8,261 nt of DNA, taken from a virus (taxonomy: Duplodnaviria; Heunggongvirae; Uroviricota; Caudoviricetes). The notes under the pieces are model-generated. The model had not been told where the DNA came from. It did not search any database and saw only the letters and a list, made by a program, of their open reading frames with translations. Shown one piece after another: positions 1 through 8,261 of the stretch; within the stretch, counting starts at the first letter, position 1, and each line of letters begins with the position of its first letter. The translations under genes and the position numbers were made by a program. Location of the stretch: the IMG/VR virus record IMGVR_UViG_2681813321_000016; one strand, given 5' to 3'.

Positions 1-26
1 AATGTTAAAACCAAGGTTCAAGGTAC
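1..26. other. Candidate degenerate hix-like site at the left window edge
   Basis: AATGTTAAAACC-AA-GGTTCAAGGTAC: the central AAAACCAAGGTT is identical to the centre of Salmonella hixL as I remember it, but the outer arms are poorly conserved. At the window edge, so context is missing. Confidence 0.3.
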
Positions 27-114
27 TGTAGTAATGTTTTCCGCTTCAGGGAAAAAATAGCATCCAACCGCAGCACGTTCTTGCTTAAGACGTGCTGCGG
101 CATAATCCCAATGA

Positions 115-465
115 TTACTCCCTGACAGGGTTCGTAGGCCACTCAATATCAGGTGCAGTTGATGTATCAACACGGTTCAGCAACACCCGATACTTTTTCC
201 AGGCTTCCACCACCAGCACGACAAGATGCCGCATACAGTGAACCAGTCAGTCCAGTTTTCAGACAACCAGTGCGTCACCTTTTTGAAGGCGCTTTAAAGC
301 ACGTTTTAATCCAGGTCGGCCTGTCCTTGTTCCGCTTAATTTATCTTCAAATATTTGTTCATATCCTGCACAAACAAGAGCGTTTCGTTGCAGATCTGTA
401 TTCTGGTCATTTGTTGATACCCTTACATAGCCAATCAGCACGCTGAATCTCCCGTCCAAAAGCAC
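115..465 (-). pseudogene. pin: Serine DNA invertase (Gin/Pin/Cin/Hin family) pseudogene; intact N-terminal 68 codons (259..465) then in-frame stops and decayed remnant
   Basis: Minus-strand ORF 259..465 reads LIGYVRVSTNDQNTDLQRNALVCAGYEQIFEDKLSGTRTGRPGLKRALKRLQKGDALVV, nearly identical to the N-terminus of Gin/Pin-type invertases as I recall them, including the catalytic-serine VRVST motif. The expected W after VV is TGA; the continuing frame reads [39 protein letters not shown], still weakly alignable to the invertase core but with a second stop. Likely GTG start at 439-441 with GGGAGA 6-7 nt upstream. Symbol is family-level only. Confidence 0.75.
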
Positions 466-495
466 AAATCATGCCATACAGGCCAGAAACCGCCA

Positions 496-521
496 TTATC
501 TAAAACCTCGGTTTACGAGAA
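496..521. other. Crossover site 1 (gix/hix/pix-like 26-bp site) adjacent to the invertase pseudogene
   Basis: TTATCTAAAACC-TC-GGTTTACGAGAA: two imperfect 12-bp inverted half-sites around a 2-bp core, matching the architecture and much of the sequence of the Gin/Hin crossover sites as I recall them. It sits about 30 bp from the invertase start and is the inverted partner of site 3. Confidence 0.75.
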
Positions 522-668
522 CTCGGCACAAGCGGGGAGAAAATACCGTTACTCAGTACAGCGAATACCTGGACTAATCGACAAACATTCAGCGGTGGCC
601 TTTCTGGTGAACTATCCGGCAATGCTTCTACAGCTGCAAAATTAAAAACTGCCAGGAAAATAAGCAAT

Positions 669-1454
669 GTGGCTTTTGATGGTTCCTCCGATATCACATT
701 AAAAGCAAGTCATGTTGGTGCGTTTGCCTTAGGGAAAACAGGAAGCACCGTTGCGAATGATAAAGCAGTTGGATGGAACTGGAGTAGCGGAGCCTATAAC
801 GCAACTATTAGTGGTGCATCAACGTTAATTATTCATTTTTATATGGGAGAAGGAAGTTGTCCTGCAGCTCAGTTTCGGATTAATTATAAAAATGGCGGTG
901 TTTTTTATCGTTCAGCCCGTGATGGTTATGGTTTTGAAGCCGACTGGTCCGAATTTTACACCACCACCAGAAAACCTTCAGCAGGAGATGTTGGTGCACT
1001 GCCGTTATCTGGTGGTCAACTGAATGGTACACTGGGTATCGGAACATCCAGTGCTCTTGGCGGTAATTCGATTGTATTGGGTGATAATGACACGGGCTTT
1101 AAACAAAATGGCGATGGTAATCTGGATGTTTATGCTAATAACGTCCATGTTATGCGCTTTGTCTCCGGAAGCATTCAAAGTAATAAAACCATAAATATTA
1201 CAGGGCGTGTTAACCCCTCGGATTACGGTAACTTTGATTCCCGTTATGTGAAAGATGTTCGACTTGGTTCACAGCAATATTATGGAGTGAACAACTGGCA
1301 AACATGGTATTTCCGGTGCCCTTCAGGTCATGTATTGTCTGGTATTAATGTTCAGGATACAGGGTCTAACTCTGCCGATAATATAGCGGGCGTTTATTAC
1401 AGACCCGTTCAAAAGTATATAAATGGCACCTGGTATAATGTAGCGAGCGTTTAA
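669..1454 (+). CDS. Tail fiber variable C-terminal tip cassette SvA, silent mirror copy (frame open from 504, no own start or promoter)
   Basis: Translation is identical to the C-terminal 261 aa of the long minus-strand fiber ORF. The frame is open from just after a TAA at 501-503 inside site 1; the ORF track start at 669 is a GTG. Contains the fiber motif [22 protein letters not shown] and C-terminal [14 protein letters not shown]. Confidence 0.7.
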
Positions 1455-1455
1455 T

Positions 1456-1989
1456 ATGATGCACTTAAAGAACATAAAAGCGGGTAATGCTAAAACACTG
1501 GAACAGTATGAGTTAACAAAGAAACACGGAGTTATCTGGCTTTACTCTGAGGACGAAAAAAACTGGTATGAGGAAGTGAAAAACTTTCAGCCAGACACCA
1601 TAAAGATTGTTTACGATGAAAATAATATTATTGTTGCCATAACCAAAGATGCCTCCACACTTAACCCTGAAGGTTATAGCGTCGTTGAGATTCCTGATAT
1701 TACCGCCAACCGGCGTGCTGACGACTCAGGTAAATGGATGTTTAAAGATGGCGCAGTCATTAAACGTGTATATACCGAAGAAGAGTTGCGCCTACAGACG
1801 GAAAACCAGAAAAAAATATTATTACAGCAGGCCAGAGAAAAAACGCAGTTCTGGCAAACACAGCTTACTTTGGGGATTATCACTGATTCAGACAGACAGC
1901 AACTGATGAACTGGATGCGATACGTGCAACAGGTTGAGACAACTGATACCTCGGTTCTTCCTGTAACATTCCCGGAACCACCAGAATAA
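1456..1989 (+). CDS. tfa: Tail fiber assembly protein TfaA (mirror copy)
   Basis: 177-aa ORF starting 2 nt after the SvA stop (translational coupling); [30 protein letters not shown]... is typical of Tfa/U-type tail fiber assembly chaperones; identical to 5035..5568 on the minus strand. Symbol is family-level only. Confidence 0.8.
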
Positions 1990-1992
1990 GAA

Positions 1993-2010
1993 AAGGCCCG
2001 TACGGGCCTT
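1993..2010. terminator. Bidirectional intrinsic terminator between convergent tfa genes
   Basis: Perfect palindrome AAGGCCCGTACGGGCCTT (GC-rich stem GGCCC, loop GTAC) with an A-run upstream and T-rich tract downstream on both strands, placed between the stop codons of the convergent tfaA and tfaB. Confidence 0.6.
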
Positions 2011-2019
2011 AATTTGTTG

Positions 2020-2547
2020 TTATTCTGGTTTCTGTGGCCATTCAGGCTTTGCAGTATCCACACGGCTGACCATAACGCTGTAGCGTTCCCATGATTCCAG
2101 TCGTGTGCGTTCCTCATCAGTTGCCATATTCAGTCTGACAGCACGTTCCAGCGGTTGAATCACAGACTCCGCTTCGGAAAGCAAAGCGGCTTTTTGTAAC
2201 TCTGCCTGCTGTTGCAGTTCCTGTTTTGTATATTCCCGCTTTACTACTTTACCATCCAGAAACTTCCAGTTTCCCGAGATATCGGCGCGACGGTTGGCTG
2301 TTATATTCGGTAACTCAACAACACTTAACCCGTCAGGGTTAAGTGTTGATACGTCTTTCTCAATACAACGAATAATCCCCTTCTGGTCATAAGCTATTTT
2401 TAAAGTATCATCCTGAAAGTTTTTTAATTCGTCATACCAGTTTTTACCGTCTTCTGTATATAGCCAGATAACGCCAGCTTTTTTCGTAAGCTGATACTGC
2501 TCAATGGTTTTGGGGTTTCCGGCGGTAATATTTTTCAGATGTTGCAT
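2020..2547 (-). CDS. tfa: Tail fiber assembly protein TfaB (mirror copy)
   Basis: 175-aa [33 protein letters not shown]..., a paralogue of TfaA along its length; identical to 4477..5004 on the plus strand. Symbol is family-level only. Confidence 0.8.
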
Positions 2548-2562
2548 ATATTCTCCTGATGG

Positions 2563-3438
2563 CTATGCCTGTTCAACGTTATACCAGTTACCAGAAATGT
2601 ATTTTTGTAGTGGTCGTGACACCATCCAGTCATCTCCATCAACCTCACCAATAATTTGCAATCCTGTTGTCACATGACCATTACCTGGTTCGCAAAGTCC
2701 TCCGCGATATAATGTGTCAGAACGTCTGCCTCCCAGACGCACATTTCTGATAAAAGAACTATTCAGGTAATCATTTAAGTTTGAACCCCAGCACCCACCA
2801 AATATATTTCCATCGGTGTTATAACGGACGCCACCCGCAATAAGAGCACCCGGTGAAATAAAGGATTTATCGTTCGGGTTAAACTGCCATAAAGCATCAT
2901 TACCGCCATCGCCACGCATATGAATACATGGAACCGGAAATCCATACTGTTCTGTCAGTAAATACCCAAAGCTGACCGCGCCGGGATAGCCCTGTCCATT
3001 GCGAATGGACAAGCCCTTAACTATCGGCACGTAATGACCACCAGGAGTGGGATTCCAGGCAAACTGCGTCTGAACAAAAGGCGCGGTGGCATTATTCAAC
3101 TGGTCTGCAAATGCGCCACTTCCATCAGGAATTATTCCCTGATGAATATATGCAACCCGCTTATAAAAATCAGCAGATGCGGGTTGAAGCCCAAATGCCA
3201 GTTGTCCATTTGAATAGAATAAAAGGACACCGTCGCCGCCCTGTTTAATACCAGTGTCGTTATCTCCGAGAGTAATGGAATTACCGCCCAGTGCGTTATC
3301 TGTACCAAGCGCCAGCCCACCATCAATTTTGGCCCCGTGGCTGACAGATATAGCACCTGTTCTCAGATTTATAGCGAATGGCCTTAATGGGCCTATATCA
3401 CCGTTTTCGCCTTGTCCTTCAGCCGTCGGAACCTCGGT
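2563..3438 (-). CDS. Tail fiber variable tip cassette SvB, 5'-truncated silent mirror copy
   Basis: The ORF track gives 2563..3099 (TTG start), but the frame is open up to a TAA at 3439-3441. The encoded sequence is identical to the C-terminal part of the plus-strand ORF 3412..4461 yet lacks the first ~54 codons of that cassette, which lie in the unique 161-bp spacer. Confidence 0.6.
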   Translation of the reverse strand, partial: TEVPTAEGQGENGDIGPLRPFAINLRTGAISVSHGAKIDGGLALGTDNALGGNSITLGDNDTGIKQGGDGVLLFYSNGQLAFGLQPASADFYKRVAYIHQGIIPDGSGAFADQLNNATAPFVQTQFAWNPTPGGHYVPIVKGLSIRNGQGYPGAVSFGYLLTEQYGFPVPCIHMRGDGGNDALWQFNPNDKSFISPGALIAGGVRYNTDGNIFGGCWGSNLNDYLNSSFIRNVRLGGRRSDTLYRGGLCEPGNGHVTTGLQIIGEVDGDDWMVSRPLQKYISGNWYNVEQA

Positions 3439-4461
3439 TTACAGGAAACGGTAAACAAGGCTGGTAACGCCGTTCAGCGTTCCGGCGATAAAATGACCGG
3501 AGAACTGAAAATTGGCACGGTGAATGCGCTGCGAATTTTCAATGATGCCTTCGGTCTTATTTTCCGTCGTTCAGAAGATTTTCTTCATTTCATTCCGACG
3601 GCTGAAGGACAAGGCGAAAACGGTGATATAGGCCCATTAAGGCCATTCGCTATAAATCTGAGAACAGGTGCTATATCTGTCAGCCACGGGGCCAAAATTG
3701 ATGGTGGGCTGGCGCTTGGTACAGATAACGCACTGGGCGGTAATTCCATTACTCTCGGAGATAACGACACTGGTATTAAACAGGGCGGCGACGGTGTCCT
3801 TTTATTCTATTCAAATGGACAACTGGCATTTGGGCTTCAACCCGCATCTGCTGATTTTTATAAGCGGGTTGCATATATTCATCAGGGAATAATTCCTGAT
3901 GGAAGTGGCGCATTTGCAGACCAGTTGAATAATGCCACCGCGCCTTTTGTTCAGACGCAGTTTGCCTGGAATCCCACTCCTGGTGGTCATTACGTGCCGA
4001 TAGTTAAGGGCTTGTCCATTCGCAATGGACAGGGCTATCCCGGCGCGGTCAGCTTTGGGTATTTACTGACAGAACAGTATGGATTTCCGGTTCCATGTAT
4101 TCATATGCGTGGCGATGGCGGTAATGATGCTTTATGGCAGTTTAACCCGAACGATAAATCCTTTATTTCACCGGGTGCTCTTATTGCGGGTGGCGTCCGT
4201 TATAACACCGATGGAAATATATTTGGTGGGTGCTGGGGTTCAAACTTAAATGATTACCTGAATAGTTCTTTTATCAGAAATGTGCGTCTGGGAGGCAGAC
4301 GTTCTGACACATTATATCGCGGAGGACTTTGCGAACCAGGTAATGGTCATGTGACAACAGGATTGCAAATTATTGGTGAGGTTGATGGAGATGACTGGAT
4401 GGTGTCACGACCACTACAAAAATACATTTCTGGTAACTGGTATAACGTTGAACAGGCATAG
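3412..4461 (+). CDS. Tail fiber variable tip cassette SvB (complete cassette, currently in the OFF orientation)
   Basis: 349-aa ORF; the TTG at 3412 is probably not a real start, as the cassette proper begins at the site 2 core. Sequence after the site (QETVNKAGNAVQRSGD...) resembles the start of invertible fiber tips in e14/Mu/P1-type systems as I recall them. Contains ALGGNSITLGDNDTGIKQGGDG and C-terminal RPLQKYISGNWYNV. Confidence 0.75.
   Translation: MSFSRRNLGLQETVNKAGNAVQRSGDKMTGELKIGTVNALRIFNDAFGLIFRRSEDFLHFIPTAEGQGENGDIGPLRPFAINLRTGAISVSHGAKIDGGLALGTDNALGGNSITLGDNDTGIKQGGDGVLLFYSNGQLAFGLQPASADFYKRVAYIHQGIIPDGSGAFADQLNNATAPFVQTQFAWNPTPGGHYVPIVKGLSIRNGQGYPGAVSFGYLLTEQYGFPVPCIHMRGDGGNDALWQFNPNDKSFISPGALIAGGVRYNTDGNIFGGCWGSNLNDYLNSSFIRNVRLGGRRSDTLYRGGLCEPGNGHVTTGLQIIGEVDGDDWMVSRPLQKYISGNWYNVEQA
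3422..3447. other. Crossover site 2: hybrid site with conserved core and right half but degenerate left half
   Basis: GCCGTCGGAACC-TC-GGTTTACAGGAA. The right half and core match sites 1 and 3; the left half is instead the mirror image of SvB coding sequence (reverse complement of 3591-3602). Same orientation as site 1, inverted relative to site 3. In the SvB frame it encodes NLGLQE, paralleling YLGLRE at site 3. Confidence 0.65.
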
Positions 4462-4476
4462 CCATCAGGAGAATAT

Positions 4477-5004
4477 ATGCAACATCTGAAAAATATTACC
4501 GCCGGAAACCCCAAAACCATTGAGCAGTATCAGCTTACGAAAAAAGCTGGCGTTATCTGGCTATATACAGAAGACGGTAAAAACTGGTATGACGAATTAA
4601 AAAACTTTCAGGATGATACTTTAAAAATAGCTTATGACCAGAAGGGGATTATTCGTTGTATTGAGAAAGACGTATCAACACTTAACCCTGACGGGTTAAG
4701 TGTTGTTGAGTTACCGAATATAACAGCCAACCGTCGCGCCGATATCTCGGGAAACTGGAAGTTTCTGGATGGTAAAGTAGTAAAGCGGGAATATACAAAA
4801 CAGGAACTGCAACAGCAGGCAGAGTTACAAAAAGCCGCTTTGCTTTCCGAAGCGGAGTCTGTGATTCAACCGCTGGAACGTGCTGTCAGACTGAATATGG
4901 CAACTGATGAGGAACGCACACGACTGGAATCATGGGAACGCTACAGCGTTATGGTCAGCCGTGTGGATACTGCAAAGCCTGAATGGCCACAGAAACCAGA
5001 ATAA
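4477..5004 (+). CDS. tfa: Tail fiber assembly protein TfaB, cognate chaperone of SvB
   Basis: 175-aa ORF with AGGAGA Shine-Dalgarno 4 nt upstream of the ATG; identical to 2020..2547 on the minus strand. Symbol is family-level only. Confidence 0.85.
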
Positions 5005-5013
5005 CAACAAATT

Positions 5014-5031
5014 AAGGCCCGTACGGGCCTT
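5014..5031. terminator. Bidirectional intrinsic terminator (mirror copy of 1993-2010)
   Basis: Same palindrome AAGGCCCGTACGGGCCTT followed by TTTTCTTATTC on the plus strand; lies between convergent tfaB and tfaA. Confidence 0.6.
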
Positions 5032-5034
5032 TTC

Positions 5035-5568
5035 TTATTCTGGTGGTTCCGGGAATGTTACAGGAAGAACCGAGGTATCAGTTGTCTCAACCTGTTGCAC
5101 GTATCGCATCCAGTTCATCAGTTGCTGTCTGTCTGAATCAGTGATAATCCCCAAAGTAAGCTGTGTTTGCCAGAACTGCGTTTTTTCTCTGGCCTGCTGT
5201 AATAATATTTTTTTCTGGTTTTCCGTCTGTAGGCGCAACTCTTCTTCGGTATATACACGTTTAATGACTGCGCCATCTTTAAACATCCATTTACCTGAGT
5301 CGTCAGCACGCCGGTTGGCGGTAATATCAGGAATCTCAACGACGCTATAACCTTCAGGGTTAAGTGTGGAGGCATCTTTGGTTATGGCAACAATAATATT
5401 ATTTTCATCGTAAACAATCTTTATGGTGTCTGGCTGAAAGTTTTTCACTTCCTCATACCAGTTTTTTTCGTCCTCAGAGTAAAGCCAGATAACTCCGTGT
5501 TTCTTTGTTAACTCATACTGTTCCAGTGTTTTAGCATTACCCGCTTTTATGTTCTTTAAGTGCATCAT
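5035..5568 (-). CDS. tfa: Tail fiber assembly protein TfaA, expressed copy downstream of the fiber gene
   Basis: 177-aa ORF whose start lies 2 nt past the stop of the fiber gene on the minus strand (coupled); identical to 1456..1989. Symbol is family-level only. Confidence 0.85.
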
Positions 5569-5569
5569 A

Positions 5570-8261
5570 TTAAACGCTCGCTACATTATACCAGGTGCCA
5601 TTTATATACTTTTGAACGGGTCTGTAATAAACGCCCGCTATATTATCGGCAGAGTTAGACCCTGTATCCTGAACATTAATACCAGACAATACATGACCTG
5701 AAGGGCACCGGAAATACCATGTTTGCCAGTTGTTCACTCCATAATATTGCTGTGAACCAAGTCGAACATCTTTCACATAACGGGAATCAAAGTTACCGTA
5801 ATCCGAGGGGTTAACACGCCCTGTAATATTTATGGTTTTATTACTTTGAATGCTTCCGGAGACAAAGCGCATAACATGGACGTTATTAGCATAAACATCC
5901 AGATTACCATCGCCATTTTGTTTAAAGCCCGTGTCATTATCACCCAATACAATCGAATTACCGCCAAGAGCACTGGATGTTCCGATACCCAGTGTACCAT
6001 TCAGTTGACCACCAGATAACGGCAGTGCACCAACATCTCCTGCTGAAGGTTTTCTGGTGGTGGTGTAAAATTCGGACCAGTCGGCTTCAAAACCATAACC
6101 ATCACGGGCTGAACGATAAAAAACACCGCCATTTTTATAATTAATCCGAAACTGAGCTGCAGGACAACTTCCTTCTCCCATATAAAAATGAATAATTAAC
6201 GTTGATGCACCACTAATAGTTGCGTTATAGGCTCCGCTACTCCAGTTCCATCCAACTGCTTTATCATTCGCAACGGTGCTTCCTGTTTTCCCTAAGGCAA
6301 ACGCACCAACATGACTTGCTTTTAATGTGATATCGGAGGAACCATCAAAAGCCACATTGCTTATTTTCCTGGCAGTTTTTAATTTTGCAGCTGTAGAAGC
6401 ATTGCCGGATAGTTCACCAGAAAGGCCACCGCTGAATGTTTGTCGATTAGTCCAGGTATTCGCTGTACTGAGTAACGGTATTTTCTCCCCGCTTGTGCCG
6501 AGTTCTCGTAAACCGAGGTATTCGATAACGGCGGCAACGGTCGATTTCGCAAGAATATCCCGCCCAACTTTTGTCAGGGTTGCCAGACTGGCAACATCAT
6601 TCCCCGTAAAATACGGAAACCTGTCTGCCGCAGTAGCAAGCCCGGCCAGCGCCGTCAGGGTGGCATCTTTCGGTTGCTTACCCGCAAGCGCGTTAGTCAT
6701 GGTGGTCGCAAAATTCGGGTCGTTGCCCAACGCCGCAGCCAGCTCGTTCAGCGTATTCAGTGCGTCAGGCGACGAGTCCACGAGGGCAGCGATCGCAGCC
6801 ATAACATAAGCCGTGCTTGCGATTTGGGTATTATTCGTTCCCTGTCGCGCAGTTGGTGTTGTTGGCGTTCCGGTCAGTGCAGGACTATTTAAGGGCGCTT
6901 TCTTGTTCGTTTCACCCATTACCGCCTTAACCGCTTTTGGCGTTGCCGCCAGTGACTCGGAAGTGCTGTTGGTCGCACTGCTGAGCTGTACTATCCCCTT
7001 TTTCGTCGTGCTCGCATCCTCCAGCGCCACGGCGGATGCAATATCCTCTGCCCGTTTTGCTGCTGTCTCGGCGCGCGTTGCCGCGGATTCCGCCGTACTT
7101 TTGCTCTGAGCTGCCGCCGTCACACTACCAGCTGCCTCTGATGCTTTCATTGTTGCTGTCGTGGCACTACCTTTCGCTGCTGACGCTTGTCTGGTCGCCT
7201 CATCTTTTGAAGCAGACGCAGATGATGCCGATGACGCCGCTGAACTGGCTGACGATGCGGCTGCCGCCTTAGAGGAAGCAGCATTGTCTGCTGAAGTCTT
7301 TGCATTTGTTTCAGAGGTTTTTGCTGCAGAAGCAGACCTCGCTGCTGCAGTGGCTTGCTCAGTGGCTTTGCCAGCCTTCGTTGTGGCTGTTGAAGCGGAT
7401 GATGCGGCGCTTTCTGCCGATTTTCCGGCGGCGGTGGCACTGGCTGAGGCCTGCCCGGCACTTGTTGACGCGGCACTGGCAGACGACGCAGCCGCTGTTT
7501 TTGAGCCTGCCGCAGCCGAGGCGCTCTGTCCCGCTGCCGTTTCAGAAGACCTGGCGTTTGTCTCAGACGTCTTTGCCGCCTTCGCGGAATTGCCTGCCGC
7601 CGTTGCCGAGGAAGCGGCACTACTGGCGCTTGATGATGCGTTCGTTTCTGATGATTTCGCTGCCTCTTTTGAGGCCGCCGCATCCCGGGCTGAGGTGGCT
7701 GCTTCTGACGCCTTCGTGGTCGCGGCGGATGCAGAAGTGGCTGCTGATTGTTGTGACGCTGCCGCATTCGTTTCTGACGTTTTCGCCGCAGCGGCACTGG
7801 TAGCTGCCGCGCTTTTTGAGGACTCTGCAGCAGCAGCACTTTTCGATGCTTCACTGGCCTTTGTTGATGCCGTTCCTGCGCTGGAAGACGCTGACTGAGC
7901 CGACGACGCGGCCTGTCCGGCTGACGTGCTGGCGGCACGTGCTGAGGCTGCAGCATCGGTTGCATGAGTTACCGCCTCGCTGGCTGATGCACTGGCATCG
8001 CTGGCTGATTTTTTCGCGGCTGCCGTATTCTGTGCAACCGCGGAGGCGTTACGTGACACTTCTTCCACCATCTGCTCAAAGCGGCGCAGTGCCTCCGGTC
8101 GGACATCATCCTCCGTCATGGCACCGAGAAAATCATTCAGCGTACCTGGTCTGGAACCTTCATAGACGGTAATGGTCCCGGCATGTGAAGGCGGAAAACC
8201 TTCAACCAGCAGGGTGACGCTGTACTGACCATGCTCAACATCCATGCTGTAACGTCCGGCT
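5570..8261 (-). CDS. stf: Side tail fiber protein (constant shaft fused to tip SvA), 5'-partial; gene start lies beyond the right edge
   Basis: Minus-strand frame open from the window edge to a stop at 5570 (at least 891 aa). The N-terminal part ([47 protein letters not shown]...) and the Ala/Ser/Thr-rich repeats resemble lambda Stf/StfR-type fibers as I recall them; the [26 protein letters not shown] motif is typical. The constant part ends ...AAVIEYLGL at site 3 and continues into SvA. Symbol is family-level only. Confidence 0.9.
6503..6528. other. Crossover site 3 inside the fiber gene at the constant/variable junction
   Basis: TTCTCGTAAACC-GA-GGTATTCGATAA on the plus strand; its reverse complement TTATCGAATACC-TC-GGTTTACGAGAA differs from site 1 at two positions. 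Encodes IEYLGLRE in the fiber frame, the position where crossover sites sit in Mu G-segment/e14 P-segment-type systems. Confidence 0.8.
7050..8020. repeat. Low-complexity Ala/Ser/Thr-rich repeat region of the fiber shaft
   Basis: The fiber translation here is dominated by A/S/T with recurring KTSETNA, SASAA and ASEAA units. The compositional bias creates long spurious ORFs in other frames (7161..7898 +, 7147..7965 -, 7300..7803 +). Boundaries are approximate. Confidence 0.6.

Follow-up and report, generated by a model that had tools for sequence, protein, structure and literature searches.

A probable mis-join of the two isomers of a known Phi4-type tail-fibre tip switch in an E. coli prophage sequence

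The p15B Min system, a member of the Din family, has six full crossover sites that delimit distinct cassettes, and it is stable and inherited. The closest described system to the locus studied here is Phi4 of the E. coli ST131 strain EC958, whose 26-bp sites are the same, whose segment measures 3,106 bp and whose truncated invertase lacks a helix-turn-helix (HTH) domain, inversion being supplied in trans (Forde et al. 2014, PLoS One; PMC4134206). In the same study alternative-orientation contigs were assembled from PacBio reads, and artefactual duplications were warned of (PMC4134206). For another tip-switching prophage, e14, an anti-phage role of StfE2 has been shown (PMC12529663). Here we found that the tail-fibre switch in the window, by which we mean the whole 8,261-nt stretch of DNA analysed, is the already described Phi4-type locus of an ST131-type prophage and not a new one, and that the unusual arrangement around it is best explained, with a probability of about 0.65, by this two-state switch together with a probable mis-join of its two isomers.

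The locus is made up of the following features.

259-441, minus strand: serine DNA invertase remnant (Gin/Hin/Pin-type), about 60 codons kept, including the catalytic-serine motif YVRVSTNDQ
496-521, plus strand: site 1, TTATCTAAAACC TC GGTTTACGAGAA, a complete 26-bp site adjoining the invertase remnant
510-1454, plus strand: SvA, left copy, silent (no promoter, unfused to the shaft) and identical to the right copy
1456-1989, plus strand: tfaA, left copy, the tail-fibre assembly chaperone of SvA (Pfam Caudo_TAP, E = 6e-32)
1993-2010, no strand: perfect 18-nt palindrome AAGGCCCGTACGGGCCTT separating the convergent tfa genes; second copy at 5014-5031
2020-2547, minus strand: tfaB, left copy, identical to the right copy (Pfam Caudo_TAP, E = 9e-35)
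2563-3431, minus strand: SvB, left copy, 5'-truncated, without its first ~54 codons and the crossover half-site
3422-3447, plus strand: 'site 2', GCCGTCGGAACC TC GGTTTACAGGAA, authentic in its core and inner (SvB) half-site only
3432-3592, plus strand: loop of 161 nt, unique, holding the crossover core, the inner half-site and the first ~52 SvB codons
3436-4461, plus strand: SvB, right copy, complete but silent; inversion between sites 2 and 3 would fuse this tip cassette
4477-5004, plus strand: tfaB, right copy (Pfam Caudo_TAP, E = 9e-35)
5035-5568, minus strand: tfaA, right copy, placed for co-expression with the shaft-SvA fusion (ORF list, Pfam Caudo_TAP)
5570-8261, minus strand: shaft-SvA fibre gene, the shaft Sc (6517-8261) in frame with SvA (5570-6514; ORF list)
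6503-6528, plus strand: site 3, TTCTCGTAAACC GA GGTATTCGATAA, a complete 26-bp site at the shaft/tip joint

The fibre cassettes are arranged as mirror images, each has its own chaperone, and both can be read in frame with the constant shaft. The fibre reading frame at 5570-8245 (minus strand) runs through site 3 into SvA and is followed by tfaA, placing the A tip in the expressed position as had been proposed from the sequence alone. The start codon lies ~134 nt beyond the window (the corresponding CDS of WS3294A, the closest relative, encodes 941 aa), and the shaft matches Pfam phage_tail_N at profile positions 51-134 of 134. The assignment of SvA-tfaA and SvB-tfaB as alternative tip/chaperone cassettes was borne out, TfaB and TfaA being 56% identical. 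Similarity between SvA and SvB was found in one internal block of 50 aa (60% identity) and in the C-terminal ~100 aa (31%); of the conserved blocks claimed earlier for the two tips the C-terminal one stood, and no shared joining block was seen beyond ...GL. The left SvB copy has an in-frame stop just upstream, and its fusion to the shaft is impossible in the present state. The 18-nt palindrome between the tfa genes is probably a bidirectional terminator.

Analysis of the adjoining invertase gene revealed a decayed remnant. Its product is 60-68 aa long and is followed by stop codons; translation showed that W61 is changed to a stop and that the in-frame sequence beyond has decayed, with more stops down to ~60. 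Pfam searches matched profile positions 2-69 of 145 only of the Resolvase N-terminal domain in the remnant and detected no HTH domain there, and the WS3294A annotation is of a 60-aa 'recombinase family protein'. When the remnant was compared with the intact 205-aa Hin of Yersinia phage vB_YpM_3, identity was 72% over 98 aa, and at the DNA level the first ~190 nt were nearly identical to the intact gene, with decay beyond. A functional serine invertase with a Resolvase catalytic domain and an HTH was thus not found beside the segment, and since the adjoining gene is a dead remnant, the enzyme must come in trans; we infer that its source is another prophage. Within the remnant, the part that is conserved (its 5' part) would probably still supply a Fis-dependent enhancer in cis, for which the native distance from the invertase-proximal site is ~100 bp (PMC3798978).

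A scan of the window for the 26-bp dyad consensus, in which as many as 3 mismatches were allowed, matched only 496-521 and 6503-6528. Site 1 has 0 mismatches (0.01 expected by chance) and is identical to Phi4_3prime, and site 3 has 1 mismatch, its outer half being the outer half of Phi4_5prime (both in Table 3 of PMC4134206). The two sites are in inverted orientation, their cores TC and GA being reverse complements. Site 2 failed the scan: its outer half is SvB coding sequence, which agrees with TTATCTAAAACC at 4/12 positions. The core element itself, the 12-mer ACCTCGGTTTAC, occurs three times, at 505 and 3431 on the plus strand and at 6508 on the minus strand (chance expectation 0), that is, two direct copies and one inverted.

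Self-comparison of the window showed that 505-3431 and 3593-6519 are mirror-image arms of 2,927 nt without a mismatch, separated by the 161-nt loop, and that the inverted-repeat arms extend in total over 490-3431 and 3593-6534. The novel junction lies at 3431/3432 with a 2-nt AA ambiguity and 2-nt microhomology, and sits 2 nt outside the TC crossover dinucleotide; its position is the boundary at which exact identity between both segment orientations begins. On its left, 1-3431 reproduces the B-ON copy of WS3294A exactly (100% identity, 0 mismatches, 0 gaps), and on its right 3430-8261 equals the A-ON copy of WS3294A except for 2 single-base gaps. The window therefore consists of a B-ON half and an A-ON half of the same locus joined head to head, the duplicated part being an extra 2,926-nt inverted, truncated copy of the segment.

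Several predictions of the sequence-only reading were examined in silico and hold. A site 2 x site 3 flip fuses SvB in frame, giving a 918-aa ...IEYLGLQETVNKAGN... product; strain 4/1-1 has an annotated B-state protein of 968 aa, from which this product differs at 16/918 residues. After this flip both copies are perfect tandem direct repeats with a period of 2,926 nt, and their collapse leaves a 5,335-nt sequence that is 100% identical to the WS3294A B-ON copy. A site 1 x site 3 flip is silent, as it follows from the symmetry that only the 161-nt loop is reversed. Sites 1 and 3 are the sole pair of full sites, and their inversion is silent, indicating that the effect of the duplication would be to mask the switch, not to extend it.

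We wanted to see how the locus appears in other genomes. A match spanning the junction was found in none of 5,426 complete E. coli genomes, and a junction 32-mer had no match in the genome_contigs, viral_contigs or metagenome_contigs collections. The junction was also absent from the 24 compared loci (18 scanned directly, L001-L018, and six aligned to the window, L019-L024). No record was found of the 349-aa SvB ORF specific to the junction, and the 178-aa truncated SvB product matched only contigs in which SvB is broken by unrelated insertions; all ten long contigs carrying the exact TfaA allele (10/10) were single-copy at the locus. The single-copy locus occurs both ways, as the proposed switching implied, the invertase-side junction being of the B-ON type in 376 genomes and of the A-ON type in 152. 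Between the sister isolates 4/0 and 4/1-1 the only difference at the locus is a clean inversion of 3.1 kb, the flanks being 100% identical. Furthermore, the WS3294A record has a ~16-kb terminal overlap, left untrimmed, that contains both orientations, documenting mixed cultures and assembly trouble for the closest relative, and PLSDB holds 9-33-kb 'plasmid' records that bear this chromosomal locus.

Candidate routes to the junction were also considered. Being displaced 2 nt outward from the TC core, the junction is not the product of a serine-recombinase crossover, and an origin of site 2 by invertase crossover with an SvB pseudo-site was rejected on the same ground: native SvB reads GCCGTCGGAATG AA ATGAAG, core exchange predicts ...GGAATG xx GGTTTAC, and ...GGAACC TC GGTTTAC is observed. 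An invertase double-strand break followed by end joining would leave the SvB fragment with at most the TC 3' overhang and not the preceding CC. Snap-back priming at the core through CCGA/TCGG pairing predicts ...AAACCGA/CGGCTG, the observed sequence being ...AAACCGAGGTTCCGACGGCTG; both of these routes were rejected. Homologous recombination, break-induced replication and inversion across a fork between opposite-state sisters give palindromic G...G' or Sc'...Sc products, and a fold-back read (a missed SMRTbell adapter, or nanopore template plus complement) predicts a mirrored flank, no unique loop and no shaft end. On the assembly side, and counting against a mis-join, no assembler route to the exact join could be reconstructed. 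A two-isomer de Bruijn graph has no edge from the SvB segment end to itself, and a hairpin path through it was rejected, since that edge requires reads already containing the junction; an overlap-layout assembler would find no overlap there, and a chimeric read would break at the segment boundary only by coincidence.

In the switch itself a 3.1-kb segment, carrying the mirror-image SvA-tfaA and SvB-tfaB cassettes between two 26-bp sites, is inverted by a Gin/Pin-type serine invertase so that either tip is fused in frame to the constant shaft. Most likely, co-existing B-ON and A-ON isomers were mis-joined in sequencing or assembly and the extra copy is not heritable; the third site is the seam of a one-off 2.9-kb mirror-image duplication, and neither it nor the extra copy belongs to the switch system. 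As expected of a chimera, each side of the junction corresponds to one natural isomer and the junction was found nowhere else searched; the duplication is most likely of artefactual origin. Correct flanks and error-free arms are also expected of a genuine clonal duplication, and it is possible, if doubtful, that the sequenced isolate carries a real, recent, unstable and clonal inverted duplication, made when a rare illegitimate event placed a 5'-truncated copy beside the invertase-proximal site. Both outer junctions are authentic and the arms identical, one end of the inserted copy falls in the 12-nt homology common to all sites, both in-silico escape routes restore exactly the natural single-copy isomers, and no concrete assembler mechanism was pinned down. 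Two replication template switches, at the 12-13-nt crossover-site homology and at the 2-nt microhomology, are a possible route, and the 100% identity of the arms means that such an event, if real, was very recent. The locus would then form a near-palindrome of 6 kb in which two sites are full and one is a half-site; efficient 1 x 3 inversion would be silent, and the B state could be reached only through the weak half-site or once the duplicate is lost, whether by a 2 x 3 flip and RecA collapse or by deletion across the 13-nt direct repeat AACCTCGGTTTAC. However, the junction is unique when set against several hundred locus-bearing genomes and all scanned collections, it is off the crossover dinucleotide, and no biological reason was found for a breakpoint at the exact-identity boundary. 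Palindromes are unstable in E. coli (SbcCD, RecA), and 2.9-kb perfect inverted arms 161 nt apart should be unstable too. We regard as unlikely a genuine, very recent rearrangement in one isolate that left a 6-kb near-palindromic double switch with a third, half-competent site.

The three-site switch put forward in the sequence-only reading was not supported by the comparison, because site 2 is a half-site at a unique junction, there is no invertase in cis, and the junction is absent from all other assemblies that were examined. The same evidence bears on an evolved multi-site inversion system, similar to p15B Min or a shufflon, with three functional sites and several useful isomers. The threefold core element, two direct and one inverted, and the existence of multi-site Din-family systems (p15B Min, cited in PMC4134206) speak for such a system, but there are just two distinct cassettes and nothing new is encoded by the duplicate, one of the SvB copies is truncated and unfusable, site 2 has no outer half-site, the arrangement is conserved in no other genome searched and the invertase is not encoded in cis. 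At least three complete sites, extra distinct cassettes and inheritance in independent genomes, which would mark a multi-site cluster, were all lacking, the last of these in the collections and 24 loci searched, making this explanation, which the anatomy contradicts, very improbable.

A known two-state switch with a probable mis-join is therefore the reading that we prefer. The biology that it contains is known: the tail-fibre tip of a defective prophage keeps flipping by means of another prophage's invertase, as published for ST131. The finding carries a warning that active inversion segments yield duplicated or mirror-image assemblies, which may pass for multi-site systems of a new kind. A true duplication would amount to a modest curiosity: an unstable evolutionary intermediate, caught live, such as is thought to precede multi-site clusters like p15B Min, and an experiment of nature on whether one authentic half-site is enough for a Gin/Pin-type invertase.

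The tail-fibre tip switch belongs to the classic Mu/P1/e14 family. It is most like Phi4 (PMC4134206), with which it has in common the crossover sites (ccgccaTTATCTAAAACCTC GGTTTACGAGAA and its partner ccgccgTTATCGAATACCTC...), a segment of ~3.1 kb, a truncated invertase without an HTH, inversion in trans and a lambdoid J-lom-stf setting next to trp/ompW; unlike the window, to which a hybrid half-site is added, the published Phi4 and every database copy have the segment once, with two sites. The layout Sc - site - Sv-U / U'-Sv' - site - invertase is that of the phage Mu G segment and Gin. In the nearest sequenced relative here, the Mu-like vB_YpM_3, the sites TTATCTAAAACC TC GGTTTGCAGGAA and TTCCTGTAAACC GA GGTTTTGGATAA are near-identical, and its DNA matches that of the window at ~94.5% identity in parts of the cassettes and at the 5' end of the invertase gene; its invertase is intact (205 aa) and its shaft is that of a myovirus fibre, whereas the window has a lambdoid side tail fibre and a remnant. 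The e14 P segment with Pin and the trans-acting PinQ/PinR of cryptic prophages likewise shows tip inversion in a defective lambdoid prophage by another prophage's invertase, but with different cassettes and a 1,797-bp segment (PMC12529663). Like p15B Min, the window nominally has more than two crossover sites and cassette sequences repeated in inverted orientation; unlike p15B Min, its third site is a half-site and its duplicate is no new cassette.

The open reading frame (ORF) list and a repeat search of the window revealed that both alternative tip cassettes of the tail fibre, SvA and SvB, and the genes for their assembly chaperones, tfaA and tfaB, are accompanied by left-hand mirror copies.

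Features of the window
496-521, site 1, TTATCTAAAACC TC GGTTTACGAGAA (sequence reading)
510-1454, plus strand, SvA, left mirror copy (ORF list and repeat search)
1456-1989, plus strand, tfaA, left mirror copy (ORF list and repeat search)
2020-2547, minus strand, tfaB, left mirror copy (ORF list and repeat search)
2563 up to 3431, minus strand, SvB, left mirror copy (ORF list and repeat search)
3436-4461, plus strand, SvB cassette, right copy, silent (ORF list)
4477-5004, plus strand, tfaB, right copy, convergent with tfaA (ORF list)
5035-5568, minus strand, tfaA, right copy (ORF list)
5570 to beyond 8261, minus strand, side tail-fibre gene (ORF list)
6503-6528, site 3, TTCTCGTAAACC GA GGTATTCGATAA (sequence reading)

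The repeat tool delimited two inverted arms, 490-3431 and 3593-6534, with a unique 161-nt loop (3432-3592) between them. A base-by-base check found the 505-3431 arm free of mismatches against its partner, and the arm mismatches at 495, 501 and 504 all fall inside outer half-sites. The constant shaft carries the Pfam domain phage_tail_N, identifying the gene as a lambdoid side tail fibre. SvA and SvB have in common one 50-aa block at 60% identity and, with weak similarity, the last ~100 aa at the C terminus, and TfaA and TfaB are 56% identical. Long ORFs of 245-272 aa in other frames or on the opposite strand of the Ala/Ser-rich repetitive shaft (7150-7965) are spurious and not genes.

Sites 1 and 3 have the 12+2+12 dyad architecture of Gin/Hin-type sites, and they were the only two hits of a consensus search allowing up to three mismatches, where chance alone would give 0.01. 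The 12-mer ACCTCGGTTTAC, comprising the core and the first part of the inner half-site, has three copies in the window. The middle copy (site 2, 3422-3447) has as its outer half GCCGTCGGAACC, a left-arm piece of the SvB coding sequence that matches the authentic outer half in 4 of 12 positions, so site 2 amounts to a half-site. The normal invertase-side junction with the A tip on reads TTATCTAAAACC TC GGTTTACAGGAA. At 3431 the arm stops, 2 nt short of the TC core on its left side; because a serine recombinase crossover would put the junction at the core, recombination at a pseudo-site does not account for the join.

Among 5,426 complete E. coli genomes, nowhere was at least 80% of the window covered, and the best-matching loci had a single copy and measured 5,333-5,335 nt. 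Nearest of all was that of E. coli WS3294A, whose RefSeq 'complete' chromosome (NZ_CP035819.1) has an untrimmed terminal overlap of ~16 kb, with one prophage tail region at both ends of the record (1-16998 and 4983958-4996164) and its 3.1-kb segment in opposite orientations. Window positions 1-516 plus 3430-8261 equal the copy at the record start, in which the shaft is fused to SvA (A state), the sole differences being two single-base gaps, while positions 1-3431 equal the copy at the record end, fused to SvB (B state), with no mismatch and no gap. The window thus follows the B-state isomer nucleotide by nucleotide as far as 3431 and the A-state isomer from 3430-3432 onward. The two single-base indels in the WS3294A start copy frameshift SvB and tfaB. 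We found that no complete E. coli genome spans the junction, that the junction 32-mer has no exact match in one genome per species, IMG/VR or JGI metagenome contigs, and that the junction is absent from all 24 loci fetched, including ten long contigs with an identical TfaA allele. The single-copy invertase-side junction was B-type in 376 genomes and A-type in 152. The silent SvB cassette is disrupted in certain strains: a short-read contig (GCA_902502995.1, 1-117) breaks at window-equivalent 3389/3635 at what we take to be an IS1 end, and four Logan contigs (L020-L023, 1-30) break at 3231/3793 into unrelated sequence.

The sequence-only reading had proposed a three-site switch with the A tip on and the B tip off, and its observed features and isomer arithmetic held. 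In-silico inversion of the segment from the site 2 core to the site 3 core gave, as it had predicted, an in-frame shaft-SvB fusion, open for 918 aa within the window (968 aa once the missing start is added); strain 4/1-1 has an annotated B-state fibre from which it departs in 16 residues. The same flip turned the copies into direct repeats, a perfect tandem with a period of 2,926 nt, and the foreseen collapse to a single copy, modelled by removing one unit, left a 5,335-nt sequence with 100% identity to a natural B-state locus. Sites 1 and 2 contain 13-nt direct repeats, and an in-silico deletion between these yielded the natural A-state locus. Inversion between sites 1 and 3 merely reversed the loop and left the expressed protein unchanged, again as anticipated. 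What did not stand was the three-site switch as a system. The third site marks the seam where a one-off inverted duplication was joined.

This duplication is probably an artefact, or a non-heritable chimera, and we put the probability of that reading at about 0.65. Either half of the window is the same as one of the natural isomers, these occur together in cultures, and the locus demonstrably upsets assemblies, as in the WS3294A terminal overlap; furthermore, 9-33-kb 'plasmid' records in PLSDB carry this chromosomal locus and look like spurious alternative-orientation contigs. The junction is unique, is not a recombinase product and lies precisely where the two segment orientations begin to be exactly identical, a seam to be expected from joining by graph, alignment or consensus and predicted by no biological process that we found. 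In addition, perfect inverted arms of 2.9 kb spaced 161 nt apart should be unstable in wild-type E. coli. However, no concrete assembler route could be named: a de Bruijn graph of the isomer mixture lacks such an edge, the junction offers overlap assemblers nothing to overlap, and a plain fold-back read would give a mirrored flank and no unique loop. Correct flanks and identical arms would likewise be expected of a genuine clonal duplication. A real recent rearrangement is a possible, though rather unlikely, source of the window. That the sites evolved as a multi-site system is very improbable, site 2 being only a half-site. Several of the PLSDB 'plasmids' (CP054240-CP054252; H106-H111, H117) come from one E. 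coli isolate from a bone infection of the foot.

Each half-site is bound by one subunit of an invertase dimer, and cleavage involves all four subunits (PMC3798978), so that, if the duplication were real, the full sites 1 and 3 would be the efficient pair. Site 1 would retain its native position beside the presumed enhancer, the reaction between sites 1 and 3 would silently flip the loop only, and the B state would need either the crippled site 2 or earlier loss of the duplicate. A real duplication would therefore dampen rather than enrich the switch.

To the left of the arms lies the remnant of a serine invertase gene, in which Pfam detected Resolvase domain positions 2-69 of 145 only and no HTH domain, and whose frame contains stop codons from codon 61 onward. 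The remnant aligns with the intact 205-aa Hin of a Mu-like Yersinia phage over the first ~100 residues only; its DNA (259-465) is near-identical to the gene of phage vB_YpM_3 (L006, 2074-2691) for ~190 nt and then decays abruptly. The Fis-dependent enhancer sits within the 5' end of invertase genes of this kind, and this pattern would fit selection retaining it. Window 1-26 (AATGTTAAAACCAAGGTTCAAGGTAC) forms a partial hix-like palindrome without matching the 26-bp consensus, and 66-209 has a 90% identical copy ~1 kb farther left on the chromosome, amid tail-fibre-assembly gene remnants; taken together they suggest older, decayed cassettes past the invertase remnant. The GCA_902502995.1 contig (L019) terminates 31 nt, and the WS3294A record 72 nt, past the window's left edge, and these two independent ends hint at a repeat boundary or assembly break point.

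Forde et al. (2014) described the locus as prophage Phi4 of ST131 strain EC958, with the same pair of 26-bp sites (Table 3 of that paper), an invertible segment of 3,106 bp and a truncated invertase without the HTH domain; alternative-orientation contigs came from PacBio read assembly, and action in trans by the invertase of another prophage, Phi1, which has near-identical sites, was inferred (PMC4134206). Natural flipping was confirmed independently of that study by isolates 4/0 and 4/1-1, which differ by a clean 3.1-kb inversion between flanks that are 100% identical over 7,217 and 4,119 nt. The prophage of these ST131 isolates is reduced to a stump, with lom cut by ISEc12 and the remaining phage missing; the switch still flips in this series without a phage to benefit. 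The Mu-like Yersinia pestis myovirus vB_YpM_3 (MT374852.1) shares with the locus, at ~94.5% DNA identity, the sites, portions of the tip cassettes and chaperone genes, and the 5' end of the invertase gene, which is intact in the phage. From this likeness and the phage_tail_N domain, the module is a relative of the Mu G segment grafted onto a lambdoid side tail fibre, and it clearly exemplifies the exchange of modules across phage families. Collectively, the biology is that of the already published two-site switch of Phi4, of the Mu-G type, with a trans-acting invertase.
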